This document shows positions 2,607 through 30,223 of a stretch of 34,322 nt of DNA, in pieces. A program made the position numbers and the translations under genes. The notes under the pieces were generated by a model. It had not been told where the DNA came from, ran no database searches, and worked only from the letters and a program-made list of their open reading frames with translations. This DNA comes from Deltaproteobacteria bacterium (GTDB lineage: Bacteria > Myxococcota_A > UBA9160 > G020347605). The stretch covers positions 3,382,021-3,416,342 of the forward strand of contig CP070734.1 of the NCBI GenBank assembly GCA_020347605.1, read 5' to 3'. How positions within the stretch are numbered: the stretch's first letter is position 1; the number at the start of each line of letters is the position of its first letter.

Positions 2607-2762
2607 CTATTCCCGGGGGCGGATGTCGATCACGGTGCCGCCGTTGCCGCCACGGGACAGCTCGGCGACCGCCTGGCGATAGCCGGCCTGGTAGCCCCGG
2701 TACTTTCCCACCCAGTAGCCGAGTACGAAGCAGATCGCGATCAATGCGAATAGTCCGGGCAT
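2607..2762 (-). CDS. Small single-pass membrane protein, 51 aa
   Basis: MPGLFALIAICFVLGYWVGKYRGYQAGYRQAVAELSRGGNGGTVIDIRPRE. Purine-rich RBS (GGGGAAGAGAG) and a TACCAT -10-like hexamer at 2834-2839. Confidence 0.65.
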   Translation of the reverse strand: MPGLFALIAICFVLGYWVGKYRGYQAGYRQAVAELSRGGNGGTVIDIRPRE

Positions 2763-2863
2763 CTCTCTTCCCCGTGTCTCTCGCCCGAACGCTCGAAGGG
2801 CGCCGCCCCAGGCGAGTCTGCCGCCGGATGCCGATGGTATCGAAAATGGATCGCGCGTCGGGC

Positions 2864-3517
2864 TCAGTCCGCCCACGCGGGCGGCGCCGCGGGCGGTGAT
2901 GGCTCGGAGGCCTCGAGCGCGGCGATCAGCGCCCGGATGCGGTCGAGTCGCCTCGCGTCGAGCTCCACCGATTCGAACGATTCGACGAGGCCCGCGAGGC
3001 GCCGGCCCGTGGTGCGGGCGCCGAGCTTCTGTCCGAGCGTCGCGTCCTCGAAGAAGTCGAGGATCGCGTCGCGCAGCGCACCCGCCTCCACCAGCCCGTA
3101 GGCGCGCCAGGGCACCGCGGCGAGATGCGCCGCGCGAAAGCCCTCCGACATGAACGTCAGCGATCCGATCTCGCGCACCTGCTCGCCGCGAAAGTTGATC
3201 TCGAAGTACGCGATGGCAACCGCATTGAGCGCGTCGTAGTTGCGCCGGTCGACCGGCGTCTGTTCGAGGTCGTCGCGCAAGGGGCCGAGGTTGGGCTCGT
3301 CGTGGCGTGCCGGGTCCAGGATGATCGCGAAGAATTCGGGATACCGGGGCCCCACGTCGTCGAGCACGCGGTCGGTACCGACCACGTCCCAGTATTCGCC
3401 GCTGTCCGTCAGGCGGTACCGCATCGGATCGGGCCGCGCCTCGAACAGCGACGCGCAAGCGGGCACCAGGGCGGCGGCCATCCACACGAGGCGGCGACGG
3501 CCGGGACGAGAGCCCAT
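2864..3517 (-). CDS. Hypothetical lipoprotein, 217 aa
   Basis: GAGGAG RBS; basic N-terminus, hydrophobic stretch and lipobox-like LVPAC; protein-like composition. No family recognised. Confidence 0.75.
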   Translation of the reverse strand: MGSRPGRRRLVWMAAALVPACASLFEARPDPMRYRLTDSGEYWDVVGTDRVLDDVGPRYPEFFAIILDPARHDEPNLGPLRDDLEQTPVDRRNYDALNAVAIAYFEINFRGEQVREIGSLTFMSEGFRAAHLAAVPWRAYGLVEAGALRDAILDFFEDATLGQKLGARTTGRRLAGLVESFESVELDARRLDRIRALIAALEASEPSPPAAPPAWAD

Positions 3518-3702
3518 CGTTCGTCTCCTCTCGCGGTTGCACGCGGCCCGTTCGGCACACGTAGCCCAGCTCGCAGGTCGCTGCCCGGGCCGCGGGACGA
3601 CCGGGCCTTGAGCCGCATCGGCGGCGCGGAATCGGAGCGGGGCGCGGGATCGGCGGACCTCCGTGTCGAGCTACGCCGTCACGCGCGCCTCGTGGACGGG
3701 CG

Positions 3703-4749
3703 TCATCGATCCCTCTCCGCCTGCTTCGCAGGCTCGGCCTCCCGCGGCGCATCCGCGTCGCGGACGTCGGGCGCGACGAACACGCTGCTCTCCGGATGGA
3801 ACGCCATCCAGGCGAACCAGTACCCCTCGATGACCTCCAGCTCGCCCGGAGCCTCGATGGCGAACGCACCGGTGTCGGGGTCGAAGGCGACGCGCACGGG
3901 TCGCCCGGCGAAGCGTTCCGCGACCTGCCCGCCCGACCGCACGACTTCCGCGGCCGGATAGGCGCGACTCTCGCCGGCCGGTACGCGAAGCCCCGCCGTG
4001 GGCATCTTCGGGTGGTAGCGGCGGTCGCGGGGCGCCGGGAACATCAGGCGGTCCGAGCGTTGGTAGTCCTCGTAGGGTGACACGCCGTAGCGACGCCGAT
4101 GCCCCGTGTCGCGCGACAGCACCGTCGTGTCCGGATGCTCCCGGCGCCAGGACCCGAGGCGCGCGATGCGCGACCGCAGCAGCTCGAGCCGGAGTCCCAG
4201 GGCGGGTCCGGTCACCGCTTCTGCGCGGATCTGTGACCAGAGACTCTCGGTTTCGCGATCGAACATCAGTAGATCGGACCGGTAGAGCAGCCCCGAGACT
4301 CCGAAGCGGAGCGCGCGATCTCCGCTGCGACGGTCGAACGCCATCGCCGTGCCGCACAGCGGGCAGTAGGAGACCAGCACGGGTCGGCCGCCCAGCGTGT
4401 CGTTCACCAGCTCGTGCCACTCGAGAATCGCGAGCGGATAGGCGCGTGCGCTTCCATTGGCGACGAGACCCAGCACCCGCGCCTCGTCCGTGAAGGACGA
4501 CCGCGCGGCGGGAACGACGGCCGGATCGTCGAGTGCGGGGATGCCGTCGCGAGGCGGGCCGCCCACCCGGATCTCCTCGGCCGGAATCGCCGCGGGATCG
4601 AGCGCGAATCCGTTCGCGCGCCGTTCGGCCCCGGTCTCTGCGGCCGCGCCGACCAGGCACAGGGACAGCGGGATCACCAGGGCGCTTCGCAGCGGTTTGC
4701 GCACGGCGGGGGGACGGGCGCAGCGCTCCCGTGAGGCGGGCGTCATCAT
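3703..4749 (-). CDS. DUF3179-family secreted protein with a CxxC motif
   Basis: Motifs GGPPRDGIPALD, ARAYP...WHELVND, YCPLCGT, FGVSGLLYRSDLLMFDRETESLWSQ, YWFAWMAFHP; N-terminal signal-like segment. Confidence 0.9.
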   Translation of the reverse strand: MMTPASRERCARPPAVRKPLRSALVIPLSLCLVGAAAETGAERRANGFALDPAAIPAEEIRVGGPPRDGIPALDDPAVVPAARSSFTDEARVLGLVANGSARAYPLAILEWHELVNDTLGGRPVLVSYCPLCGTAMAFDRRSGDRALRFGVSGLLYRSDLLMFDRETESLWSQIRAEAVTGPALGLRLELLRSRIARLGSWRREHPDTTVLSRDTGHRRRYGVSPYEDYQRSDRLMFPAPRDRRYHPKMPTAGLRVPAGESRAYPAAEVVRSGGQVAERFAGRPVRVAFDPDTGAFAIEAPGELEVIEGYWFAWMAFHPESSVFVAPDVRDADAPREAEPAKQAERDR

Positions 4750-4764
4750 GGTCTGTCCCGGGGA

Positions 4765-4790
4765 TACGCCGCCGGCGCGCCGACGGTTAC
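4765..4790 (-). promoter_or_regulatory. ECF sigma (SigF/ECF16-like) promoter for the DUF3179 gene
   Basis: Minus strand reads GTAACC-gtcggcgcgccggcgg(16)-CGTA, ending 15 nt before the ATG at 4749. Confidence 0.75.
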
Positions 4791-4799
4791 GTTCGCTCC

Positions 4800-4825
4800 G
4801 TAACCGCTTGCGGCGCGGGCGCGTA
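4800..4825 (+). promoter_or_regulatory. ECF sigma (SigF/ECF16-like) promoter for the nrsF-like gene
   Basis: GTAACC-gcttgcggcgcgggcg(16)-CGTA; same boxes and spacing as the divergent copy. Confidence 0.75.
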
Positions 4826-4901
4826 TTCCCGCCAGCACGCCCGGGGCCGGACGCATCCGGCGCCGGGCCGGGGCGAGCGCCCGACGCGCGAGGGCCACGC
4901 G

Positions 4902-5588
4902 ATGAAGGGTCGAATCCCGGACACCCGCCGGTTCATCCGAGCCCTGGCGGCCGACCTGCGGCCCGTCCGTCCGATTCCCCGGCTCGGCTCCGTCGCGCTG
5001 GGCGCGTCGCTCGTGTGGCTCGCGGTCGGGCTCGCCGCGCTCGCGGTGCGGGGGCTTCGCCCGCAGCTCTGGGCGGCGCTGACCGAGCACCCCGCGCTCG
5101 GCGCGATCCTGGTCGGGCTGGCGCTGGTCGCCGTCGGTGGCATCGGTGCGGGACTGGCCGCCGGCGTGCCCGGGCGCGACGTCGCGGTCCGGGGCAGTCT
5201 CGTGGCCGGCGCGCTCGGCGTGCTGCTCTCGGTGGGGGTGGGCGGCGTTCTGTCGATGCGCGGCGGCGCGCCCCTGGTTCCCGCGCCAGCCGTATCGGCG
5301 GACGTCTCCTGCCTCGCCGTGGCGCTGCTCCTCTCGCTGCCGCCCGCGCGGGTGGCGCTGTGGTTCGTGGCGCGCTCCGCACCGCATCGCCGGCTGCTCG
5401 CGGGCCTGTTCCTGGCGACCGGCAGCGTGGCCCTGGGCGCCGTCGTGGTGCACCTGAGCTGTGACGGCATTCACCCGCGTCACCTGATTCTGAGTCACGC
5501 GCTCGCGCCCGTCGCCGGCGCGCTGCTCCTGACGCTTCCCTACCGGTCGGCCCTCGCGCGCGGCGCCGATCGCGTCTGGCGCGGCTGA
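4902..5588 (+). CDS. nrsF: NrsF/DUF1109-family membrane anti-sigma factor
   Basis: N-terminal DTRRFIRALAADLRPVR, about 6 TM segments, AGVPG, two Cys (VSCL, HLSC) and HLILSH, all typical of NrsF. Confidence 0.8.
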   Translation: MKGRIPDTRRFIRALAADLRPVRPIPRLGSVALGASLVWLAVGLAALAVRGLRPQLWAALTEHPALGAILVGLALVAVGGIGAGLAAGVPGRDVAVRGSLVAGALGVLLSVGVGGVLSMRGGAPLVPAPAVSADVSCLAVALLLSLPPARVALWFVARSAPHRRLLAGLFLATGSVALGAVVVHLSCDGIHPRHLILSHALAPVAGALLLTLPYRSALARGADRVWRG

Positions 5589-5749
5589 ACACCCCTTCGA
5601 CCCGGTCCGCCTCGCCCGTTTCCGGCAACGATCTCCTACAGTGAGGCGGGCCGGGTCGTCGCTCGCGGGACGCCGCCGCGCGGCCGGCGGCGCACTGGAA
5701 CCGTGGCCGCAAGCGTGTTTCACTGGCTCACGGCGCAAGGAGGGTACGC

Positions 5750-7150
5750 ATGCGCGCGGACGCGCTGCACTGGACGTCGCTGATGGAGCTCGCGGAGCGG
5801 ATCCGAACGCGTTCGCTCTCGCCCGTCGAGGCGACGACCGCCACGCTCGAGCGCATCGATGCGCTCGACGCCGCACTGCATAGCTACATCACGGTCCTCC
5901 GCGAGCGCGCCCTCGAGCAGGCCAAGCAGGCGGAGCGCGAGATCTCGGACGGGCGCTACCGCGGACCGCTGCACGGCGTCCCCGTCGCGGTCAAGGACCT
6001 GTGCTTCACGCGCGGCGTCCGAACCACCTGCGCGTCGAAGATCCTCGCGGATTTCGTGCCGGACTACGACGCCGCGGTGGTCGAACGGCTCTCACGCGCC
6101 GGCGCCGTCGTGCTGGGCAAGCTCAACATGACGGAGTTCGCGTTGTCCGGATATCACCCGGATCGCCCCGCGCCCGTCAATCCCTGGGCTGCCGACCGCT
6201 GGCCCGGCGTCTCGTCGAGCGGCTCCGGGGTCGCCACCGCCGCAGGACTCTGCTTCGGCTCGATCGGGACGGACACCGGAGGATCGATCCGCTTCCCGTC
6301 GGCCGCCTGCGGCGTCGTCGGCCTCAAGCCGACCTATGGTCGTGTGAGCCGCTACGGTGTCTTTCCGCTCGCCGAGTCGCTCGATCACGTGGGCCCGATC
6401 GCGCGGCGCTCCGCCGACGCCGCCGCCATGCTCGCCGCGATCGCCGGCCACGACGCGCGCGACCCCACGTCGCTTCGCGAGACCGTGCCCGACTACCTGG
6501 CGTCGATCGATGCGGGCGTGCGCGGTGTGCGCATCGGCGTCGACGAACGGTACTGCCGGGAGGAGGTCGATCCGGAGCTGGCGGAGGCGGTGCTCGGCGC
6601 GGCGCGCGCGCTGGCGGGGCAGGGCGCCGAGCTGCGCGAGGTCGAGTTCCCCGACGTCGGCGAAATCGCGCGGTGGTGGTTCGCGATCTGCTCGGCCGAG
6701 GCCGCCTGGGCGCACGAGGGGACCTATCCGTCGCGCGCCGACGACTACGGTCCCGACTTCCGGCGCCTGTTGGAGCAGGGCGCGCGCGTGCGCGGCGCCG
6801 ACTACGCGCGCGCACACGCGGCGCGCGAGGCCTTTCGCGGCCGGCTGCGCGCGCTCTTCGAAGACGTCGACCTCATCGCGTGTCCCTCGATGCCGGCTCC
6901 ACCCCCGCGACTCGCGGAGCTCGGCCTCGAGACCGCGTCGCAGGTCTCGGCCCGGCCGCTGCTCCGCTTCACCGCGCCCTTCGACTTCAGCGGGAGCCCC
7001 ACCCTCTCGCTGCCCTGCGGCCTGTCCCGCGAAGGACTCCCGCTGAGCGTGCAGCTCGTCGGACGCCACCTGAGCGAGGATCTCCTGTGCCGTGCGGGGC
7101 ACGCGTACGAGCAGGCGAGCGACGCGCACGCGCGGACCCCGCCGGTCTGA
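5750..7150 (+). CDS. Amidase-signature family amidase
   Basis: GPLHGVPVAVKDL (Lys), GVSSSGS, GTDTGGSIRFPS (Ser). AAGGAGG RBS. No gatB/gatC nearby. Confidence 0.93.
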   Translation: MRADALHWTSLMELAERIRTRSLSPVEATTATLERIDALDAALHSYITVLRERALEQAKQAEREISDGRYRGPLHGVPVAVKDLCFTRGVRTTCASKILADFVPDYDAAVVERLSRAGAVVLGKLNMTEFALSGYHPDRPAPVNPWAADRWPGVSSSGSGVATAAGLCFGSIGTDTGGSIRFPSAACGVVGLKPTYGRVSRYGVFPLAESLDHVGPIARRSADAAAMLAAIAGHDARDPTSLRETVPDYLASIDAGVRGVRIGVDERYCREEVDPELAEAVLGAARALAGQGAELREVEFPDVGEIARWWFAICSAEAAWAHEGTYPSRADDYGPDFRRLLEQGARVRGADYARAHAAREAFRGRLRALFEDVDLIACPSMPAPPPRLAELGLETASQVSARPLLRFTAPFDFSGSPTLSLPCGLSREGLPLSVQLVGRHLSEDLLCRAGHAYEQASDAHARTPPV

Positions 7151-7157
7151 CGCGGCT

Positions 7158-8051
7158 TCAGACCGGGATGCCCGCCTGGCGCGCGCGCTCCAGGGTGTTC
7201 CGGGCGCGCTCGAGGTGGGGCGCGTCGACCATCTGGCCGCGAAACGCGAAGGCCATGCGGCCCGCCCGGCGGTTCTCCTCGAACGCCTCGAGCAGCTCGC
7301 GGCTCTCCGCGACTTCCTCCGCGGACGGCGTGAATGCCTCGTTCACCACGTCGATCTGGCTCGGGTGGATGGTCAGCTTTCCCGTGAAGCCCATCCGGGC
7401 GGCCTCGCTGCACTCCCGCTTGAGCCCCTCGAGGTTGCGGATGTCGACGTAGACCGTGTCGAGGGCCTGCACGCCCGCGGCGGCCGCGCTGAGCAGGGTC
7501 ATGATGCGGCAATAGCGGAAGACGTCGAGAAAGCCGCCGCGCTCGTCGCGGTTGCGGCGGGCTCCGATGGCGGCCGACAGGTCCTCTGCGCCCCAGGTGA
7601 GCGCGTCGACGCGGGGGCAGGCGGGCAGGTCCCGCAGGTTCAATACACCCTCCGGTGTCTCCGTGCCGAGCACCAACAGCGCGACCTCCCCGCGCGGGTG
7701 GCCGTGGCGCGCCTCGAGCCCGGTCAGCAACCGGTCGAGCTCGAGCAGGTCGTCGCGGCTTCTCACCTTGGGCACGAGGTAGGCATCCGGTGGAGCCGCC
7801 ATGGTCGCCTCGAGGTCGCGCGCGCCCCACGGTGAGTCCAGGGGGTTCATGCGCACCACGCGTTCCCGACGGCCGAAGTCCGCGTCGCGCAGCCAGCCGG
7901 TCACGGCCTCCCGCGCCGACTCCTTGCGCTCCGGCACAACCGCATCCTCGAGGTCCAACACCAGCGAATCCGCCTCGAGGTCGAGGGACTTCGCGAGCAT
8001 CTTCTCGTTCCCGCCCGGCACGAAATGGACGGCGCGCCGCAGTCGAGGCAT
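7158..8051 (-). CDS. citE: CitE-like CoA-ester lyase (HpcH/HpaI family)
   Basis: FVPG, LDLEDAV, VVRMN, ETPEG, GAEDL, GFTGKLTIHPSQI, GQMVDAPH. Confidence 0.9.
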   Translation of the reverse strand: MPRLRRAVHFVPGGNEKMLAKSLDLEADSLVLDLEDAVVPERKESAREAVTGWLRDADFGRRERVVRMNPLDSPWGARDLEATMAAPPDAYLVPKVRSRDDLLELDRLLTGLEARHGHPRGEVALLVLGTETPEGVLNLRDLPACPRVDALTWGAEDLSAAIGARRNRDERGGFLDVFRYCRIMTLLSAAAAGVQALDTVYVDIRNLEGLKRECSEAARMGFTGKLTIHPSQIDVVNEAFTPSAEEVAESRELLEAFEENRRAGRMAFAFRGQMVDAPHLERARNTLERARQAGIPV

Positions 8052-8066
8052 GCGCAGCTCCCCGCT

Positions 8067-8528
8067 TCAGGCGGCGTCCGGCGGGTGGCTCAGCAGCATC
8101 GCCGCGCGCGTGCAGCGGCACACCACCTGGCCCCGCTGGTTCAGTCCGCGGTGCTCGAAGGTGACGATCCCCCACTCCGGTCGCGACCGCGACTCCCGCT
8201 TCGCCTTCACTTCGGTGACCGCCCGAATCGTGTCGCCGATGAAGACGGGTTTGGGGAACTCGACCTTCTCGAAGCCGAGATTGCCGACCGTCGTGCCGAG
8301 CGTCGTCTCGCCGACGGACAGGCCCACCACCAGCCCGAGCGTGAAGATGCTGTTCACGAGGCGCTTCCCGAACTCGGTCTCACTGGCGAACTCGGCGTCG
8401 AGATGGAGCGGCTGGGGATTCATCGTCAGCGCCGTGAACAGGAGGTTGTCGGTCTCGGTCACGGTTCGCGCGGGTTGGTGCTCGAAGATCTCGCCGATCT
8501 CGAGCTCTTCGAAATAACGTCCGGCCAT
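8067..8528 (-). CDS. MaoC-family (R)-hydratase/dehydratase
   Basis: YFEE...[48 protein letters not shown]. Confidence 0.92.
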
Positions 8529-8585
8529 GGTGGACTCCTCGAGTCAGCCGGCCCGCCGGCCGGCGCGGCGCTGCCCGGTCCGCAC

Positions 8586-9752
8586 TCAGTAGCTGCGCGG
8601 CAGTCCGAGAACGTGCTCGCACAGGTAGTTGAGCACCATTTCCTGCGAAATGGGCGCGATGCGCATCAGCCGCGATTCGCGCCAATAGCGCTCGACGTGG
8701 AATTCGCGCGCGTACCCGAAGCCGCCGAACACCTGCAGCGCGCGGTCGCAGGCGCGAAACGACGCCTCCCCGGCCCGCAGCTTCGCCATGTTGGCGAGCG
8801 CGCCTGCGGCCTCGCCCCGGTCGTAGCTCCAGGCCGCCTTCTGCCAGAGCAGGTCGGCCGCCTCGAGCTCGCTGTGCGAATCCGCCAGCGGGTGCGCGAT
8901 CGCCTGGTTCTGGCCGATCGGGCGGTCGAACACGATGCGGTCCCGGGCGTAGCGCACGGCGCACTCGAGGGCGCGGCATCCGATCCCCACGGCTTCGGCC
9001 GCGATCACGATGCGCTCGGGATTGATCCCGTCGAGCAGATGGTAGAAGCCGCGACCCACCTCGCCCACGACGTCGGCCTCGGGGACGGGCAGGTCGCGGA
9101 TGTAGACCTCGTTGGAATTGACCGCGTTGCGTCCGAGCTTCGGGATCTCGCGGATCTCGCAGTGCTCCGGATCGAGATCGGCCAGGAACAGCGTCATGCC
9201 GTCCATGCGCCTGCGGCACGACTCGCGCGGCGTCGTGCGTGCGAGCAGCAGGATCTTCTGCGCCTGCTGCGCCTTCGTGTTCCAGACCTTCTTGCCGTTC
9301 ACGATGAATCGATTGCCGTCGCGGTGCGCGAACGTGCGAATGCGCGAGGTGTCGGTGCCGGCGTCGTCCTCCGTCACGCCGAACGAGACGTGGAGCTCAC
9401 CGGTCGCCGTGGGCGGCAGCGTGCGCTCCTTGAGCTCCTCGGAGCCGTGATGGATCACCGGCCCCATGCCGAAGATGGACAGGTGCAGCGTCGAAGCGGC
9501 GTTCATCGCGCCGGCGCTCGCGCCCACCGCGCGCAGCAGCGTACCGGCGTGCAGGACGCCCAGCCCCGCCCCGCCGTACCGCTCGGGGACGAGGACGCCG
9601 AGCCAGCCCTTCGTGGCGAACGCGCGATAGAACTCCCAGGGAAACGCGCGCTGCTCGTCGCGTTCGCTCCAGTAGTCGTCGTCGAAGGCTTCCGAGAGCT
9701 TCGCGGCCTCGCGCCGGATGCTCTCGAGCTCGGGATCGGCCTCGAAATCCAT
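8586..9752 (-). CDS. Acyl-CoA dehydrogenase
   Basis: FGVTEDDAGTDT, NGKKVWNT, FDRPIGQNQAI, QVFGGFGY, RIAPISQEMVL. Start at ATG 9752 (9764 is an alternative). Confidence 0.93.
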   Translation of the reverse strand: MDFEADPELESIRREAAKLSEAFDDDYWSERDEQRAFPWEFYRAFATKGWLGVLVPERYGGAGLGVLHAGTLLRAVGASAGAMNAASTLHLSIFGMGPVIHHGSEELKERTLPPTATGELHVSFGVTEDDAGTDTSRIRTFAHRDGNRFIVNGKKVWNTKAQQAQKILLLARTTPRESCRRRMDGMTLFLADLDPEHCEIREIPKLGRNAVNSNEVYIRDLPVPEADVVGEVGRGFYHLLDGINPERIVIAAEAVGIGCRALECAVRYARDRIVFDRPIGQNQAIAHPLADSHSELEAADLLWQKAAWSYDRGEAAGALANMAKLRAGEASFRACDRALQVFGGFGYAREFHVERYWRESRLMRIAPISQEMVLNYLCEHVLGLPRSY

Positions 9753-9759
9753 CGCTGCG

Positions 9760-9768
9760 ATCATATCA
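9760..9768 (-). promoter_or_regulatory. Extended -10 promoter, probably leaderless
   Basis: TG-A-TATGAT, then 7 nt, then ATG (9752). No SD sequence. Confidence 0.55.
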
Positions 9769-9849
9769 GACGCGCGTCCCGACTCCGCGCTAGGCTTCGC
9801 GAACACCGGGACGGCGCCGGCGGGGCCGCTCCGAGACGAGGAAGGACCC

Positions 9850-10455
9850 ATGATCAAGCTATACGGTGTGCCCGGATCCCGGGCCTTTCGGTCGCTCTGG
9901 ATGCTCGAAGAGCTCGGCCTCGACTACGAGAACGTGCCCGTCAACTTCGCCACCGGCGATACGCGCAAGCCGGACTACCTGAAGATCAATCCGAACGGCC
10001 ACATTCCCGCGCTCGACGACGACGGCGTGGTCCTGTTCGAATCGCTGGCCATCAACCTGTACCTGGCGCGCAAGTACGGGAAGGATCTCTGGCCCGGGAC
10101 CGTGGAGGACGAGGGCCGCGCCTTTCAGTGGACCCTGTGGGCGATGACCGAGGCGGAGGAGCCGCTGCTCACCGCGATGTTCCATCGACTGCTGTATCCC
10201 GAGAAGCAGCGCGATCCGGCCCGGGCCGACGACGCGGCGAGGCGTTTCGAGGCGCCCCTCGCCGTGCTGGACGCCGCGCTCGCGGATCGGGACTACCTGC
10301 TCGGGGGAGACTTCAGCGTCGCCGACCTGAACGTCGCCTCGGTCGTCTCCTGGACGAAGCTCGCGAAGATCGACATCTCCGGATCGGAGCACGCCGCGGC
10401 CTGGCTGGCGCGCTGCACGAGTCGGCCGGCCGTCAAGCGCGCCCAGGGCCGCTAG
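9850..10455 (+). CDS. Glutathione S-transferase
   Basis: SRAFRSLWMLEELG, INPNGHIP, LFESLAINLYLA, FSVADL. GAGGAAGGA RBS. Confidence 0.93.
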   Translation: MIKLYGVPGSRAFRSLWMLEELGLDYENVPVNFATGDTRKPDYLKINPNGHIPALDDDGVVLFESLAINLYLARKYGKDLWPGTVEDEGRAFQWTLWAMTEAEEPLLTAMFHRLLYPEKQRDPARADDAARRFEAPLAVLDAALADRDYLLGGDFSVADLNVASVVSWTKLAKIDISGSEHAAAWLARCTSRPAVKRAQGR

Positions 10456-10488
10456 CGAGCCGCTCGCGACGCGGCACGCGAGGGGGCG

Positions 10489-11334
10489 TCAGGGCAGGCC
10501 CGCTCCGGGGGACTCCACGCGCGCGGTCTCGATGCGGCCCGCGCGCTGCGCGCGCGCTTCGTCGCCGCGCGACGTCGTGGCGGTGCAGACGAAGAGCGTG
10601 CGCCGGTCGTCCCCGCCCAGCATGCAGGCGAAGGCCTGCGTCGAGACCTTCACGCGGTCGCTGACGGCGCCTCCCTCGTGCACGCGCAGCACCTCTGCGC
10701 TGACCGGCGACGCGACCCAGATCGCGCCTTCGGCGTCGAGGCAGATGCCGTCGGGGACCGCGCGCTCGAGCCGCGCCCAGACGCGCCGCCCGCCGAGCGA
10801 TCCGTCCGCCTCGATGTCGAAGGCCGTCAGGCAGGCGCCGAACGATTCGCCGACGATCAGGGTGCGCCCGTCCGGCGTGATCACACTGCCGTTCGGAAAG
10901 TCGAGGTCGTCCGCCACGATCCGTGCGTCCCCTTCGGGCGTGACCCGCACGATCTCCGCGGGCTTCGGCGTCTCGCGCGCGTCGAGATCGAATCCGAAGT
11001 TTCCCACGTAGGCGCAGCCGCCCCCGTCCACCACCATGTCGTTGCAGTGGAACGACGCCAGCGCCTCGAGGTTCGCCACCTCCGCGAGGCCGTCCGGGTC
11101 CAGCCGCAGGAGCCGGCGATCGGTCATCGACACGATCAGCAGGCGGCCGTCGGGAAGCCAACCGAGGCCGGATGGCTGTCCCGGAACGTCGACGACGGTC
11201 TCGGCGCTGCCGGTGGCGTCGACGGTCATCACCGCGCGGGCGTGCATGTCCGAGAACCAGAGCTTGCCGTCGCGCCAGCGCGGGCCCTCCGGAAAGGCGA
11301 GACCGTCCAGCAGCACGGTGGTTTCGCGGTGCAT
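10489..11334 (-). CDS. SMP-30/gluconolactonase family protein
   Basis: FPEGPRW, CNDMVVD, FPNGSVI, PDGICLDAEG. Confidence 0.93.
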   Translation of the reverse strand: MHRETTVLLDGLAFPEGPRWRDGKLWFSDMHARAVMTVDATGSAETVVDVPGQPSGLGWLPDGRLLIVSMTDRRLLRLDPDGLAEVANLEALASFHCNDMVVDGGGCAYVGNFGFDLDARETPKPAEIVRVTPEGDARIVADDLDFPNGSVITPDGRTLIVGESFGACLTAFDIEADGSLGGRRVWARLERAVPDGICLDAEGAIWVASPVSAEVLRVHEGGAVSDRVKVSTQAFACMLGGDDRRTLFVCTATTSRGDEARAQRAGRIETARVESPGAGLP

Positions 11335-25846: not shown

Positions 25847-26317
25847 CTACTGGCAGAGGATGCGGACGACGATCAGGAAGCCGATCAGGAAGCCGGCGGC
25901 TCCGAGCAACCAGGCGGCGCGTCGGTCGAACGCGCGCCGGCCGCGCAAGGCGCGTTGCGCGCGCCCGCCCGCGGGCGTCTCGGAGGCCGTGCCTGCGGGT
26001 TCCTCGGCCGCCTCCGACGCGGCCAGGCGCGCCAATTCGGCGGCCTTCCGCGCCGCTTCCGCGGCGGCGGGAACGAACTGCTGTGCGTCCGCCTCGAGCC
26101 CGACCCTCAACGTCGTGGGCAGGGCGTCGCGCTGTGTTCCCCCGAGCGCCAGCTCGATGCCCGCCACCGCGAGGTCGAGCGCCGACTCGTCGAGCTGATC
26201 GAACCGGGGCCGCAGCCGTTCGATCTCGGCCGCCTCCTCCGGCGAGACGCCCTGGGTGCCGCGATCCGCGAGCAGCGACAGGAGGCGGTCCAGCTCGGTC
26301 GTCGGATGTTCGCTCAC
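25847..26317 (-). CDS. Short anti-sigma factor (RskA-like N-terminus plus terminal TM helix), 156 aa
   Basis: GTG overlaps the sigma stop (GTGA). Reads RLLSLLADRGTQGVSPEE...ALPTTLR, then an Ala/Glu linker, then TM AAWLLGAAGFLIGFLIVV, then a stop. Confidence 0.65.
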   Translation of the reverse strand: MSEHPTTELDRLLSLLADRGTQGVSPEEAAEIERLRPRFDQLDESALDLAVAGIELALGGTQRDALPTTLRVGLEADAQQFVPAAAEAARKAAELARLAASEAAEEPAGTASETPAGGRAQRALRGRRAFDRRAAWLLGAAGFLIGFLIVVRILCQ

Positions 26318-26880
26318 GACGGCTCCGACGCGGTCGCTTCGGCCGCGTACATCTCGGCCCGCACCCGCAGGAGGCCCAGGCGGATGTGGGACTGTACGGT
26401 CTCCAGCGGTAGATCCAGCGCGCGCGCGATCTGCGGATGGGTGTAGCCCCCGACCACCGCCAGCTCCAACGCGCGCCTGCGCTCCGGGGGCAGCTCCGCG
26501 AGGGCGTGGCGCACCGGCGCGAGCTCTTCCGAGTCGTCGAGCTGCGGTTCGGCGGCGTCCCCGCCTGCGGCGCAACGCTCGACGGGCGGGTACGACGCGG
26601 GCTCGGTCGACTCGGCGGGGCGCCGCTCCAGCAGCAGGCGGCGCGCCGTCATCGCGACGAACAGCGGCTCGCGGGTGTCTTCGGGGTCGTAGTCCGGGGC
26701 GGCGTCCCACAGGGCGCGGAAGATGTCCTGCGTCGCATCGCGCGCGTCGGACTCGGAGCGGGAGAAGCGGCGCGCGAGCGACCAGACGAGGTCGCCGTAG
26801 ACCTCGACGGACTCGACCCCGGCGGCGGCATCGCCCGCAGCCACGCGGGAGAGAATCGGATTTCGGTTCGATCCAGACAC
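26314..26880 (-). CDS. Divergent ECF sigma factor (SigK-like)
   Basis: RVAAGD, YGDLVWSLARRF, DARDATQDIF, LPPERRRALEL...THPQIA...LPLETVQSHIR. Confidence 0.85.
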   Translation of the reverse strand: MSGSNRNPILSRVAAGDAAAGVESVEVYGDLVWSLARRFSRSESDARDATQDIFRALWDAAPDYDPEDTREPLFVAMTARRLLLERRPAESTEPASYPPVERCAAGGDAAEPQLDDSEELAPVRHALAELPPERRRALELAVVGGYTHPQIARALDLPLETVQSHIRLGLLRVRAEMYAAEATASEPS

Positions 26881-28341: not shown

Positions 28342-29355
<1,014 letters not shown>

Positions 29356-29515: not shown

Positions 29516-29536
29516 TCAAACGTTCGTTTGAATCAT
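29511..29536. promoter_or_regulatory. TetR (PsrA-type) operator palindrome
   Basis: ATGATTCAAACG-tt-CGTTTGAATCAT; perfect 12-bp arms overlapping the -10 box and +1. Confidence 0.85.
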
Positions 29537-29563
29537 GGGCCGAGTCGGCCCGGGAGGCGCCCG

Positions 29564-30223
29564 GTGCGCGAGAAGGACACGAAGGAGCGGATCCTCGACG
29601 CCGCGGAACGGATCTTCGCCGAACGCGGCTTTGCCGGTACCTCGCTGCGCGCGGTGACGTCGGCGGCCGACGTGAATCTCGCCGCCGTGCACTACCACTT
29701 CGGATCCAAGGAGGCGCTGCTCCAGGAGATCCTCCACCGCCGGGTCGCGCCCATCAACCAGGAGCGCGCGAAGCGGCTCGATCGCATCGAGGCGCGCGCG
29801 GCCGAGGAGCCGCCCTCGGTCGAAGAGATCGTGGCCGCGTTCCTGGAGCCGGCCGTGCAACTCGGGGACGGGCCCGAGTCCGACGGCCGGGCCGTTCGCG
29901 CGCTGGCCGCGCGCATCTACGGCGAGCCCCGGGAGCTGGTCGAGCCCATGATCCGCGAGGAGTTCGGCGACCTCTCCCGGCGCTTCGTCGCGCTGTTGGG
30001 GCGCGCGCGGCCCGAGCTGTCGCGCAGCGAGATCGAGTCGCGCTTCCAGTTCGCGGTGGGCGTCCTGATCTTCGTGATCGCCGAGCGCTACGTCTCCAAC
30101 CTGACGCCGGACAGCGAGCTCGATCTGAACGACCGCGAAGCGATCGTGCGTCGCATGTCCGCCTTCATCGTGCACGGCTTGTGCGCGCCGCCGGCGGACG
30201 CCCGGTCTCGGGGGGGTTCGTGA
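29564..30223 (+). CDS. TetR-family regulator, PsrA-like
   Basis: TKERILDAAERIFAERGF..TSLRAVTSAADVNLAAVHYHFGSKEAL. GTG at 29564 follows GGAGG. Confidence 0.92.
   Translation: MREKDTKERILDAAERIFAERGFAGTSLRAVTSAADVNLAAVHYHFGSKEALLQEILHRRVAPINQERAKRLDRIEARAAEEPPSVEEIVAAFLEPAVQLGDGPESDGRAVRALAARIYGEPRELVEPMIREEFGDLSRRFVALLGRARPELSRSEIESRFQFAVGVLIFVIAERYVSNLTPDSELDLNDREAIVRRMSAFIVHGLCAPPADARSRGGS

Follow-up and report, generated by a model that had tools for sequence, protein, structure and literature searches.

The SigF-NrsF pair of Azospira, an ECF16 system (ECF, extracytoplasmic function), reportedly responds to hypochlorite. The pair of the same name in Caulobacter crescentus is also of the ECF16 type, and its NrsF is a six-helix anti-sigma factor of the DUF1109 type with two conserved cysteines (C131 and C181). 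As described in PMC3511200, the Caulobacter sigma-F site reads GTAACC-N16-CGAA, the promoters of sigF and of a target operon are highly similar, the small regulon consists of exported or membrane proteins, and the target CC2907 has its start at -7, hence a very short leader. The ECF16 consensus is given as (T/C)GTAAC-N17-CGAA in PMC8315932, which describes in Brucella the hypochlorite-associated ECF16 pair BcrS-AbcS, with an ECF16-type promoter, a two-cysteine DUF1109 anti-sigma and a divergent target operon beside the sigma operon. In Myxococcus xanthus, the anti-sigma CarR is, by its published description, also a six-helix protein of the DUF1109 type; it reacts to copper and, with plasmalogens, to singlet oxygen, its gene forms one operon with carQ and carS, and its orthologues are confined to the Cystobacterineae (PMC9304148). 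Here we analyze a stretch of 34,322 nucleotides (nt) from a genome of the same phylum (Deltaproteobacteria bacterium, contig CP070734.1 of assembly GCA_020347605.1; hereafter the window, with positions counted from its first letter), in which two back-to-back promoter elements separate the gene of a DUF3179 protein from an nrsF gene. We conclude that this locus is probably the promoter core, with the output genes, of an ECF16-like SigF/NrsF envelope stress switch whose sigma gene has been separated from it.

The window shares with Caulobacter the -35 box GTAACC and the 16-nt spacer (PMC3511200), a two-cysteine NrsF (here C137 and C187) and, ahead of the DUF3179 gene, a very short leader, and its promoter pair is laid out like the divergent operons of Brucella. 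Unlike in Caulobacter, the -10 element is CGTA, nrsF does not follow sigF, and the genome's sigF lacks the motif. The targets differ as well: DUF3179 and a 217-residue protein in the window, DUF2282, DUF692, DUF2063, DoxX and YedY in Caulobacter, and, as far as the sources on Brucella and Azospira describe them, a methionine-rich peptide and MsrPQ in these two, where sigma and anti-sigma are co-transcribed. A control search for DUF3179 with Pfam returned a match in Haloferax only and none in Caulobacter. The single carQ-carR-carS operon of Myxococcus likewise contrasts with the split module of the window. As an ECF16-like SigF/NrsF system, the module is of a known kind; what sets it apart are the CGTA at -10, the split architecture and the conserved DUF3179 target.

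The preliminary description of this DNA had reported mirror-image GTAACC-N16-CGTA elements, and the sequence confirms them: positions 4765-4825 read TACG-N16-GGTTAC gttcgctcc GTAACC-N16-CGTA. The minus-strand element (4765-4790) has its -35 GTAACC at 4790-4785 and its -10 CGTA at 4768-4765, whereas the plus-strand element (4800-4825) has them at 4800-4805 and 4822-4825; both spacers are 16 nt long, and a gap of 9 bp (4791-4799) separates the two -35 boxes. The spacers differ, as had been noted, since only 8 of their 16 positions are identical when read by eye in promoter orientation, and the 33-nt arms of the inverted repeat are 73% complementary. On both strands the -35 reads cGTAACC, which fits the published ECF16 (T/C)GTAAC(C) box, and the spacer length is that of ECF16 (N17 if the box is written GTAAC). 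The minus-strand -10 lies 15 nt from the DUF3179 start codon (ATG at 4749), hence the very short leader of that gene.

At one mismatch or less, GTAACC-N16-CGTA is found 3 times in the window against 0.23 expected, and none of 100 shuffles gave 3. Exact copies number three in the whole assembly, two of them being the window pair and the third (C1:978786) lying antisense within a minus-strand open reading frame (ORF), according to a crude gene call from third-position G+C content (GC3). For comparison, the looser pattern G[TC]AACC-N16-CGTA shows no genome-wide enrichment, with 8 sites found and about 9 expected from composition. Hence, the weight of the motif comes from its placement and conservation, not from its number. 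A position-weight matrix built from 42 sites of relatives contributed hardly anything that the two boxes did not; applied to this genome, it returned the window pair, the antisense copy at 978786 and weaker sites, and nothing further, so that in the assembled genome only the window pair are intergenic sites scoring like those of relatives. A consensus scan of positions 2700-6000 found neither a sigma-70-like promoter nor an intrinsic terminator. A candidate GCAACC-N16-CGTA site at C1:407644, just after the genome's second DUF3179 gene, was rejected as chance, being inside an FAD-oxidoreductase-like ORF. Elsewhere in the window, GTAACC-N16-CGCA (one mismatch) at 29329-29354 (+) overlaps the start codon of a minus-strand luciferase-like monooxygenase gene (28342-29355) and is 174 nt ahead of a TetR gene (29528-30223), a placement that is probably due to chance.

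Each element faces one of the two genes to which it had been assigned. The minus-strand gene (3703-4749) encodes a DUF3179 protein of 348 amino acids that matches PF11376 with 268 bits, against a gathering cut-off of 27, over positions 1-291 of the 292 of the profile; its motif VSYCPLCGT contains C129-P-L-C132, and its hydrophobic N-terminus indicates that it is probably exported. The plus-strand gene (4902-5588) encodes an NrsF of 228 amino acids, a DUF1109-type anti-sigma, whose residues 15-207 match positions 1-191 of the 204 of PF06532 with 40 bits (cut-off 26.8). It is by family a DUF1109-type membrane protein, with hydrophobic stretches visible by eye and the N-terminal LAxDLxPV motif common to sigma-linked NrsFs. 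Its C137 and C187 are invariant in two alignments (27/27 and 26/26 sequences). It gives no match to the NCBIfam equivalog model of NrsF, NF042994, whose curated cut-off is 300 bits, and a protein scan of the metagenome_contigs set found no relative of it.

To place these elements in context, we compared them with 40 genomes of the same order, in which the genome of the window is the sole member of its family. The window NrsF is matched in 28 of the 41 genomes, this one included, and at 27 of the 29 loci from other genomes an ECF gene of the SigF type stands directly ahead of nrsF. A search pattern allowing T, C or G at the second box position found a site directly ahead of the sigF-like gene at 17 loci (L007-L016, L018, L019, L023, L026, L027, L030 and L031), usually a few bases from the start codon; despite the looser pattern, all 17 read GTAAC, as GTAAC[CT]-N16-CGTA. 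A strict divergent second copy exists at 9 of the 27 sigma loci. In five of these nine (L012, L018, L019, L026, L027) the boxes are 10-14 bp apart, as they also are in L067, L069, L074 and L104, and the distance reaches 181 bp elsewhere. The divergent twin layout is therefore frequent at sigF loci of the order and not special to the window.

These comparisons bear on whether the inverted repeat could instead be the operator of a dimeric transcription factor. Its near-palindromic arrangement, with the partly complementary arms given above, is what such an operator would look like. The variable distance between the boxes in relatives (10 to 181 bp) and the many DUF3179 orthologues with a single copy only, such as L039, L040, L044, L045, L046 and L049, disfavor it, and each copy is at a fixed short distance ahead of a start codon, with boxes and spacer length matching the published sigma-F promoter. 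We regard the operator as extremely unlikely. The agreement of -35 and spacing with the Caulobacter site, together with the same motif ahead of the sigF genes of relatives, supports the assignment of both window elements as candidate SigF/ECF16-type promoters, as first proposed.

That no sigma gene adjoins nrsF in the window also holds. Between promoter and gene there is only a leader of 76 nt (4826-4901, +), which occupies the place of sigF in relatives and contains a likely ribosome-binding site, GAGGG at 4890-4894, 8 nt ahead of the nrsF ATG; 4826-4902 contains no in-frame start codon and no sigma gene. The nearest sigma gene of the window (26314-26880, -) encodes an unrelated ECF factor (r2 and r4_2 domains) that has the longest branch of our sigma tree, far from the SigF types. 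A sigF-like gene was found elsewhere in the genome, at C1:2891493-2892060 (L036:3494-4060). This orphan encodes 188 amino acids with the Pfam domains Sigma70_r2 and r4_2. The sigmas of all 27 relatives have their best match in this genome there (C1:2891466-2892056, 51-62% identity) and their second-best in another sigma, at 1.368 Mb (36-44%). In a maximum-likelihood tree of 34 sequences, the orphan falls with support 100/99 within a clade of 28 made of nrsF-linked sigmas. The 350 nt ahead of it contain no motif at two mismatches or less.

The genes around the orphan suggest how the module was taken apart. A histidine-phosphatase gene follows it by 40 nt, without nrsF, and the gene divergent from it encodes a membrane protein of 476 amino acids. 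The same phosphatase follows nrsF in eight relatives' loci (L008, L009, L010, L012, L013, L014, L015, L028). The 476-residue membrane protein gene follows DUF3179 in L038/L075 and L067, where the genes run nrsF <- sigF <- P|P -> (ECF-like ORF) -> DUF3179 -> membrane protein, P being the promoters. From the synteny of relatives, the 2.89 Mb site therefore has both flanks of the ancestral module and, of its interior, only sigF, while DUF3179, nrsF and the twin promoters, but no sigF, are left in the window. The ancestral arrangement would have been phosphatase <- nrsF <- sigF <- P|P -> DUF3179 -> membrane protein; it seems to have been split, and duplication followed by complementary loss is perhaps the simplest reading. 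The orphan at 2.89 Mb is likely the cognate sigma of the window module, to judge from synteny and phylogeny. The preliminary description had proposed a distant sigma inducing an extra anti-sigma. The first half stands, as a SigF-type sigma is indeed encoded elsewhere; the second does not, because the window NrsF, 36-44% identical to the sigma-linked NrsFs of relatives, is by sequence their orthologue and not an extra copy.

A different rearrangement was seen in one relative. In L033 (G007:C166, about 1400-1920, -), GTAACT-N16-CGTA is followed by an ORF that begins with the first 30 or so SigF codons and continues, in frame, into the C-terminal NrsF half; both NrsF cysteines are kept and the histidine phosphatase comes next. 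Judged on its reading frame, this looks like a deletion remnant of a sigF-nrsF operon.

The search for an ECF16-type sigma that had been suggested for this genome thus succeeded, but it returned two of them. The second, P0004, forms with the NrsF P0003 a different SigF/NrsF pair at C1:1.3677-1.3696 Mb (locus C1:1366161-1369799, L001/L077). P0003 scores 70 bits with Pfam and 19.6 bits on NF042994, and a run of N starts right after its stop codon. The pair is divergent from a gene for an 88-residue secreted peptide with six cysteines and from an MbnB/TglH/ChrH (DUF692) gene, with GCAACC-N16-CGTA in both directions. From its gene content, this locus is a predicted bufferin-like cluster, with the layout of buf1 of Caulobacter, one of the bufferin (MNIO-type RiPP, a peptide made by the ribosome and modified after translation) clusters described as being under SigF (bioRxiv 10.1101/2024.03.18.585515). 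It is separate from the window module, which has no MNIO or bufferin gene, and its boxes are GCAACC.

Since the promoters of P0004 are one base from those of the window, P0004 could read the window sites, which counts against the orphan as their sole reader. It might do so mainly or in addition, the window NrsF then being a cross-regulating extra anti-sigma. P0004 is 40% identical to the orphan. Furthermore, in one relative (G038), which also has an ordinary sigF-nrsF pair (L028), a lone nrsF of the second, P0003-like type stands behind an exact GTAACC-N16-CGTA (L080, G038:C53, 1501-2223, -) with no sigma within 1.5 kb, which suggests that the two types are sometimes cross-wired. However, the second box position is T in every site directly ahead of a sigF of the first type, as in the window, and C at both P0004 sites. 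In the tree mentioned above, P0004 is outside the clade of the orphan, with the "type-2" sigmas. The window NrsF groups with the NrsFs linked to the first type and gives no match to P0003 at an E-value of 1e-5. Finally, synteny links the orphan, not P0004, to the module, and the second type is present in only 4 of the 40 relatives. We therefore consider a main or additional role of P0004 at the window promoters unlikely, and retain the orphan as the probable partner.

We then looked at the promoter motif from the side of DUF3179. Loci were taken from the 40 relatives, from the genome_contigs set (metagenome-assembled genomes of Myxococcota or Deltaproteobacteria, and one of Opitutales) and from the metagenome_contigs set, and for each the 400 nt ahead of the conserved domain were searched on the gene strand for GTAACC-N15-17-CGTA, the best match being scored. 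Orthologues were defined by at least 49% identity. After removing the duplicates L068, L070 and L075, this left 29 orthologue loci, of which four are untestable (L054, L066, L108 and L110, the last two without 5' ends); one locus, L113, is nearly identical in sequence to L039. The motif is present at one mismatch or less ahead of 20 of the 25 testable orthologues, 13 times exactly and seven times with one mismatch (L041, L042, L043 with a spacer of 17, L047, L069, L073, L107), although these tallies overstate the support, the genomes being related and hence not independent. At this threshold, stretches within the same genes, used as controls, gave 0/25, and paralogues below 49% identity gave 0/17. 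The motif conservation on which the first proposal depended is thus present among orthologues. The CPLC motif is found in 12/12 aligned orthologues, whereas 9/9 paralogues, with the genome's own second DUF3179 (L003:3143-4111) being of this type, have D-P-[LI]-[TA] at the same place. Hence, by motif conservation, this orthologue group is a predicted conserved member of the SigF regulon in the order.

Other genes recur behind the motif. The exact pattern in five relatives gives 21 sites against 8 for a backwards control, so some of these sites must be chance. The genes directly behind it include sigF itself, DUF3179 (L086, L089), exported thioredoxin-like proteins with a WCGTC motif (L083 in G006, L090 and L095 in G005, L102 in G003), VTT/DedA proteins (L094, L099) and one bufferin-like peptide (L100). 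The motif of the thioredoxin-like proteins is KIHADWCGTC, and the Pfam Thioredoxin domain was confirmed for L083 and L102; a tblastn search at an E-value of 1e-5 found no homologue of them in the 68%-complete genome of the window. A DedA/VTT homologue is present at C1:1632206-1632823, with an upstream region cut by a run of N. Behind the second motif copy, several relatives have, divergent from sigF, a gene for an ECF-like sigma (L085, with a confirmed Sigma70_r2 match, L093/L097, L098/L101, L018 and L038/L075), which suggests a possible sigma cascade.

Several observations weigh against the reading of the locus as a SigF-dependent cassette split from its sigma. The -10 of both window copies is CGTA and not the published ECF16 CGAA; as it is one base off, we take it to be a lineage variant. 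Five of the 25 testable orthologues lack the motif within 400 nt (L038, L048, L067, L071, L109), two of which, L038 and L067, have a twin promoter about 600 nt upstream, before the intervening ORF. The distant CxxC DUF3179s L062, L063, L064, L111 and L112 have no motif either, and the regulon link is therefore one of this orthologue group, not of CxxC as such. We infer the duplication and complementary loss from synteny alone, because comparing the nrsF leader with three-frame translations and with the 3' ends of sigF in 14 relatives revealed no recognizable deletion scar. The assembly (3,670,899 bases, 70% G+C, 55,100 N) is a bin of 68% completeness and 1.9% contamination in which runs of N join the contigs. 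Hence, it is binning that places both loci on one chromosome, and the assembly may be missing another sigF copy or additional SigF targets. Finally, a public contig from a metatranscriptome library (X18, 265 nt) runs across both predicted starts; carry-over of DNA, or read-through, explains it better than a pair of divergent transcripts would, and it is of no use as evidence of transcription.

Such an assembly raises the question of whether the split itself is an artifact, with strains or species mixed in the bin, or a misjoined contig, hiding an ordinary sigF-nrsF operon. The concatenated contigs and the completeness of the bin leave room for this. In many public runs, no more than 40-57% of the genome's sampled words are present, so related strains do exist. 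However, neither junction has a run of N. Public sequencing data also span the promoter-to-nrsF junction, with the nrsF leader unchanged, in contigs from two runs that belong to different studies and of which one may be the source sample: X18 covers 4656-4920 with no difference and X2 covers 4809-5280 with one. The two loci also have exactly complementary losses and complementary flanking genes, which would be hard to obtain from bin mixing. An artifact thus appears very unlikely, and the split module remains our preferred reading.

If the module was split in this way, its circuit may be as follows. SigF would be made from another, probably constitutive promoter and be held at the membrane by NrsF. 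A thiol-reactive stress in the periplasm, such as metals (Cu, Cd, Cr) or hypochlorite or similar, would act on C137 and C187 of NrsF and free SigF; the type of stress is proposed by analogy with Caulobacter, Brucella and CarR of Myxococcus. Freed SigF would fire both window promoters, and the added NrsF would close the loop, so that negative feedback would be kept and positive autoregulation lost. DUF3179 and the 217-residue protein would be exported as effectors, the former most likely as a periplasmic thiol-redox or soft-metal-binding protein acting through C129xxC132 and H112. With sigma and anti-sigma laid out apart, the contribution of positive autoregulation to ECF signaling could be examined in a natural setting. 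Aside from this, the ECF16 site variant of the lineage, whose -10 is CGTA, is defined by the promoter set and can help to predict regulons in uncultured Myxococcota.

DUF3179 is widespread and has no assigned role, and the literature located by full-text search on the term gives no function for it. We therefore modeled the window protein with AlphaFold2 (AF2) from alignment A1, with a mean predicted local distance difference test (pLDDT) of 86.7 and a predicted template modeling score (pTM) of 0.81. Foldseek found nothing in the PDB at an E-value of 0.001; its best rows were Rieske ferredoxins, with E-values of 0.05-0.5 and a probability of up to 0.89. The top 29 rows of an exhaustive structure aligner were all Rieske-domain proteins. 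The best match, 2qpz_A, aligns 92 of 103 residues to model residues 98-198 with a root-mean-square deviation of 3.0 A and a Z of 6.8, and a Z below 8 is in the range where a common arrangement alone may explain such matches, which is a further point against the structural part of our interpretation. The loops of this region carry the invariant H112 and C129-P130-L131-C132.

The ligand motif of Rieske proteins is CxH-x(15-17)-CxxH. In DUF3179, H112 and C129 are separated by 16 residues, which agrees with the histidine-to-cysteine spacing of this motif. Yet a Rieske [2Fe-2S] cluster has four ligands, while DUF3179 offers three plausible ones (H, C, C), namely H112 and C129xxC132 of an incomplete CxH...CxxH set, and the resemblance is one of predicted structure. 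DUF3179 has varying residues (E, N, V, D, A, H) where Rieske proteins have the first cysteine, and a cysteine instead of a histidine as last ligand; the site is therefore not that of a canonical Rieske cluster. The paralogue clade has D-P-L-T/A at the position of C129xxC132. Selenocysteine (Sec) generally replaces a catalytic redox cysteine. As DUF3179 is tabulated as a selenoprotein family, with UxxC/T variants, in PMC9312934 and PMC13188914, the first cysteine of the motif may be redox-active. We give about even chances to DUF3179 being an exported thiol-redox or soft-metal protein. Its place in the SigF/NrsF regulon provides a regulatory context for one orthologue group of the family. Together with the exported thioredoxin-like proteins found beside it in the regulon, this suggests a testable function, the defense of the periplasm against thiol or metal stress, and points to the conditions in which to seek a phenotype.

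A more specific role would be that of a dedicated periplasmic partner of NrsF, re-reducing or otherwise resetting C137 and C187 and thereby ending the response. The two genes are adjacent and predicted to be co-regulated in the window, and DUF3179 adjoins sigF-nrsF in L038/L075, L067, L069 and possibly L074. DUF3179 also looks exported, Sec variants of its CxxC exist in the family, and the Caulobacter topology model of PMC3511200 puts the cysteines of NrsF in the periplasm. The co-occurrence of the two families, proposed earlier as a check, cuts both ways: NrsF is present in 13 of the 16 genomes with a DUF3179 orthologue but also in 15 of the 25 searched genomes without one, so the partner is not obligatory. 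Most DUF3179 orthologues are far from sigF-nrsF, on other contigs or megabases away, and co-regulation is expected of any regulon effector. A complex prediction with NrsF (alignment A2) and residues 44-332 of DUF3179 (A1) scored 0.01 against a mark of 0.32, which is evidence neither way. In our opinion a dedicated partner is quite unlikely.

Taking all parts together, the module would have been split by duplication and complementary loss into a sigma without an autoregulatory promoter and a sigma-dependent cassette of anti-sigma and effectors, a circuit with negative feedback only, and DUF3179, the main effector, would be a Rieske-fold-derived periplasmic cysteine (elsewhere Sec) redox or soft-metal protein of the core SigF response in this Myxococcota order, maybe acting on the sensor cysteines of NrsF. 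We think it unlikely that this conjunction is correct in all its parts.

The third gene of the cassette, orf217 (2864-3517, -), encodes 217 amino acids with an N-terminus resembling, by eye, a lipoprotein signal. It has no match in Pfam or NCBIfam, and its Atlas feature scores, at most 0.78, contain no lead of at least 0.9. It is 185 nt downstream of the DUF3179 gene on the same strand, and 3517-3703 contains no promoter motif at two mismatches or less and no terminator-like site; from this arrangement it is probably co-transcribed with DUF3179. In L017 (G040) and L020 (G020), a homologue with 52-57% identity stands behind GTAACT-N16-CGTA, divergent from sigF. Hence, all three genes of the cassette would be SigF targets somewhere in the order.

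A few features remain to be described. The nrsF leader folds at -45.9 kcal/mol (z -1.98), which is not clearly above shuffles, 7 of 200 being as good, and no Rfam family matches at gathering score across the whole window. Several long ORFs (38-1498, 1188-2753 and 8025-10664) have no Pfam match and, the DNA being 70% G+C, are perhaps not true frames. The neighbors of the cassette at 5750-11334 are ordinary metabolism genes: an amidase (5750-7150), and, on the minus strand, an HpcH/HpaI aldolase or citrate-lyase-like protein (7158-8051), a MaoC dehydratase (8067-8528), an acyl-CoA dehydrogenase (8586-9857) and an SMP-30/gluconolactonase (10489-11334).

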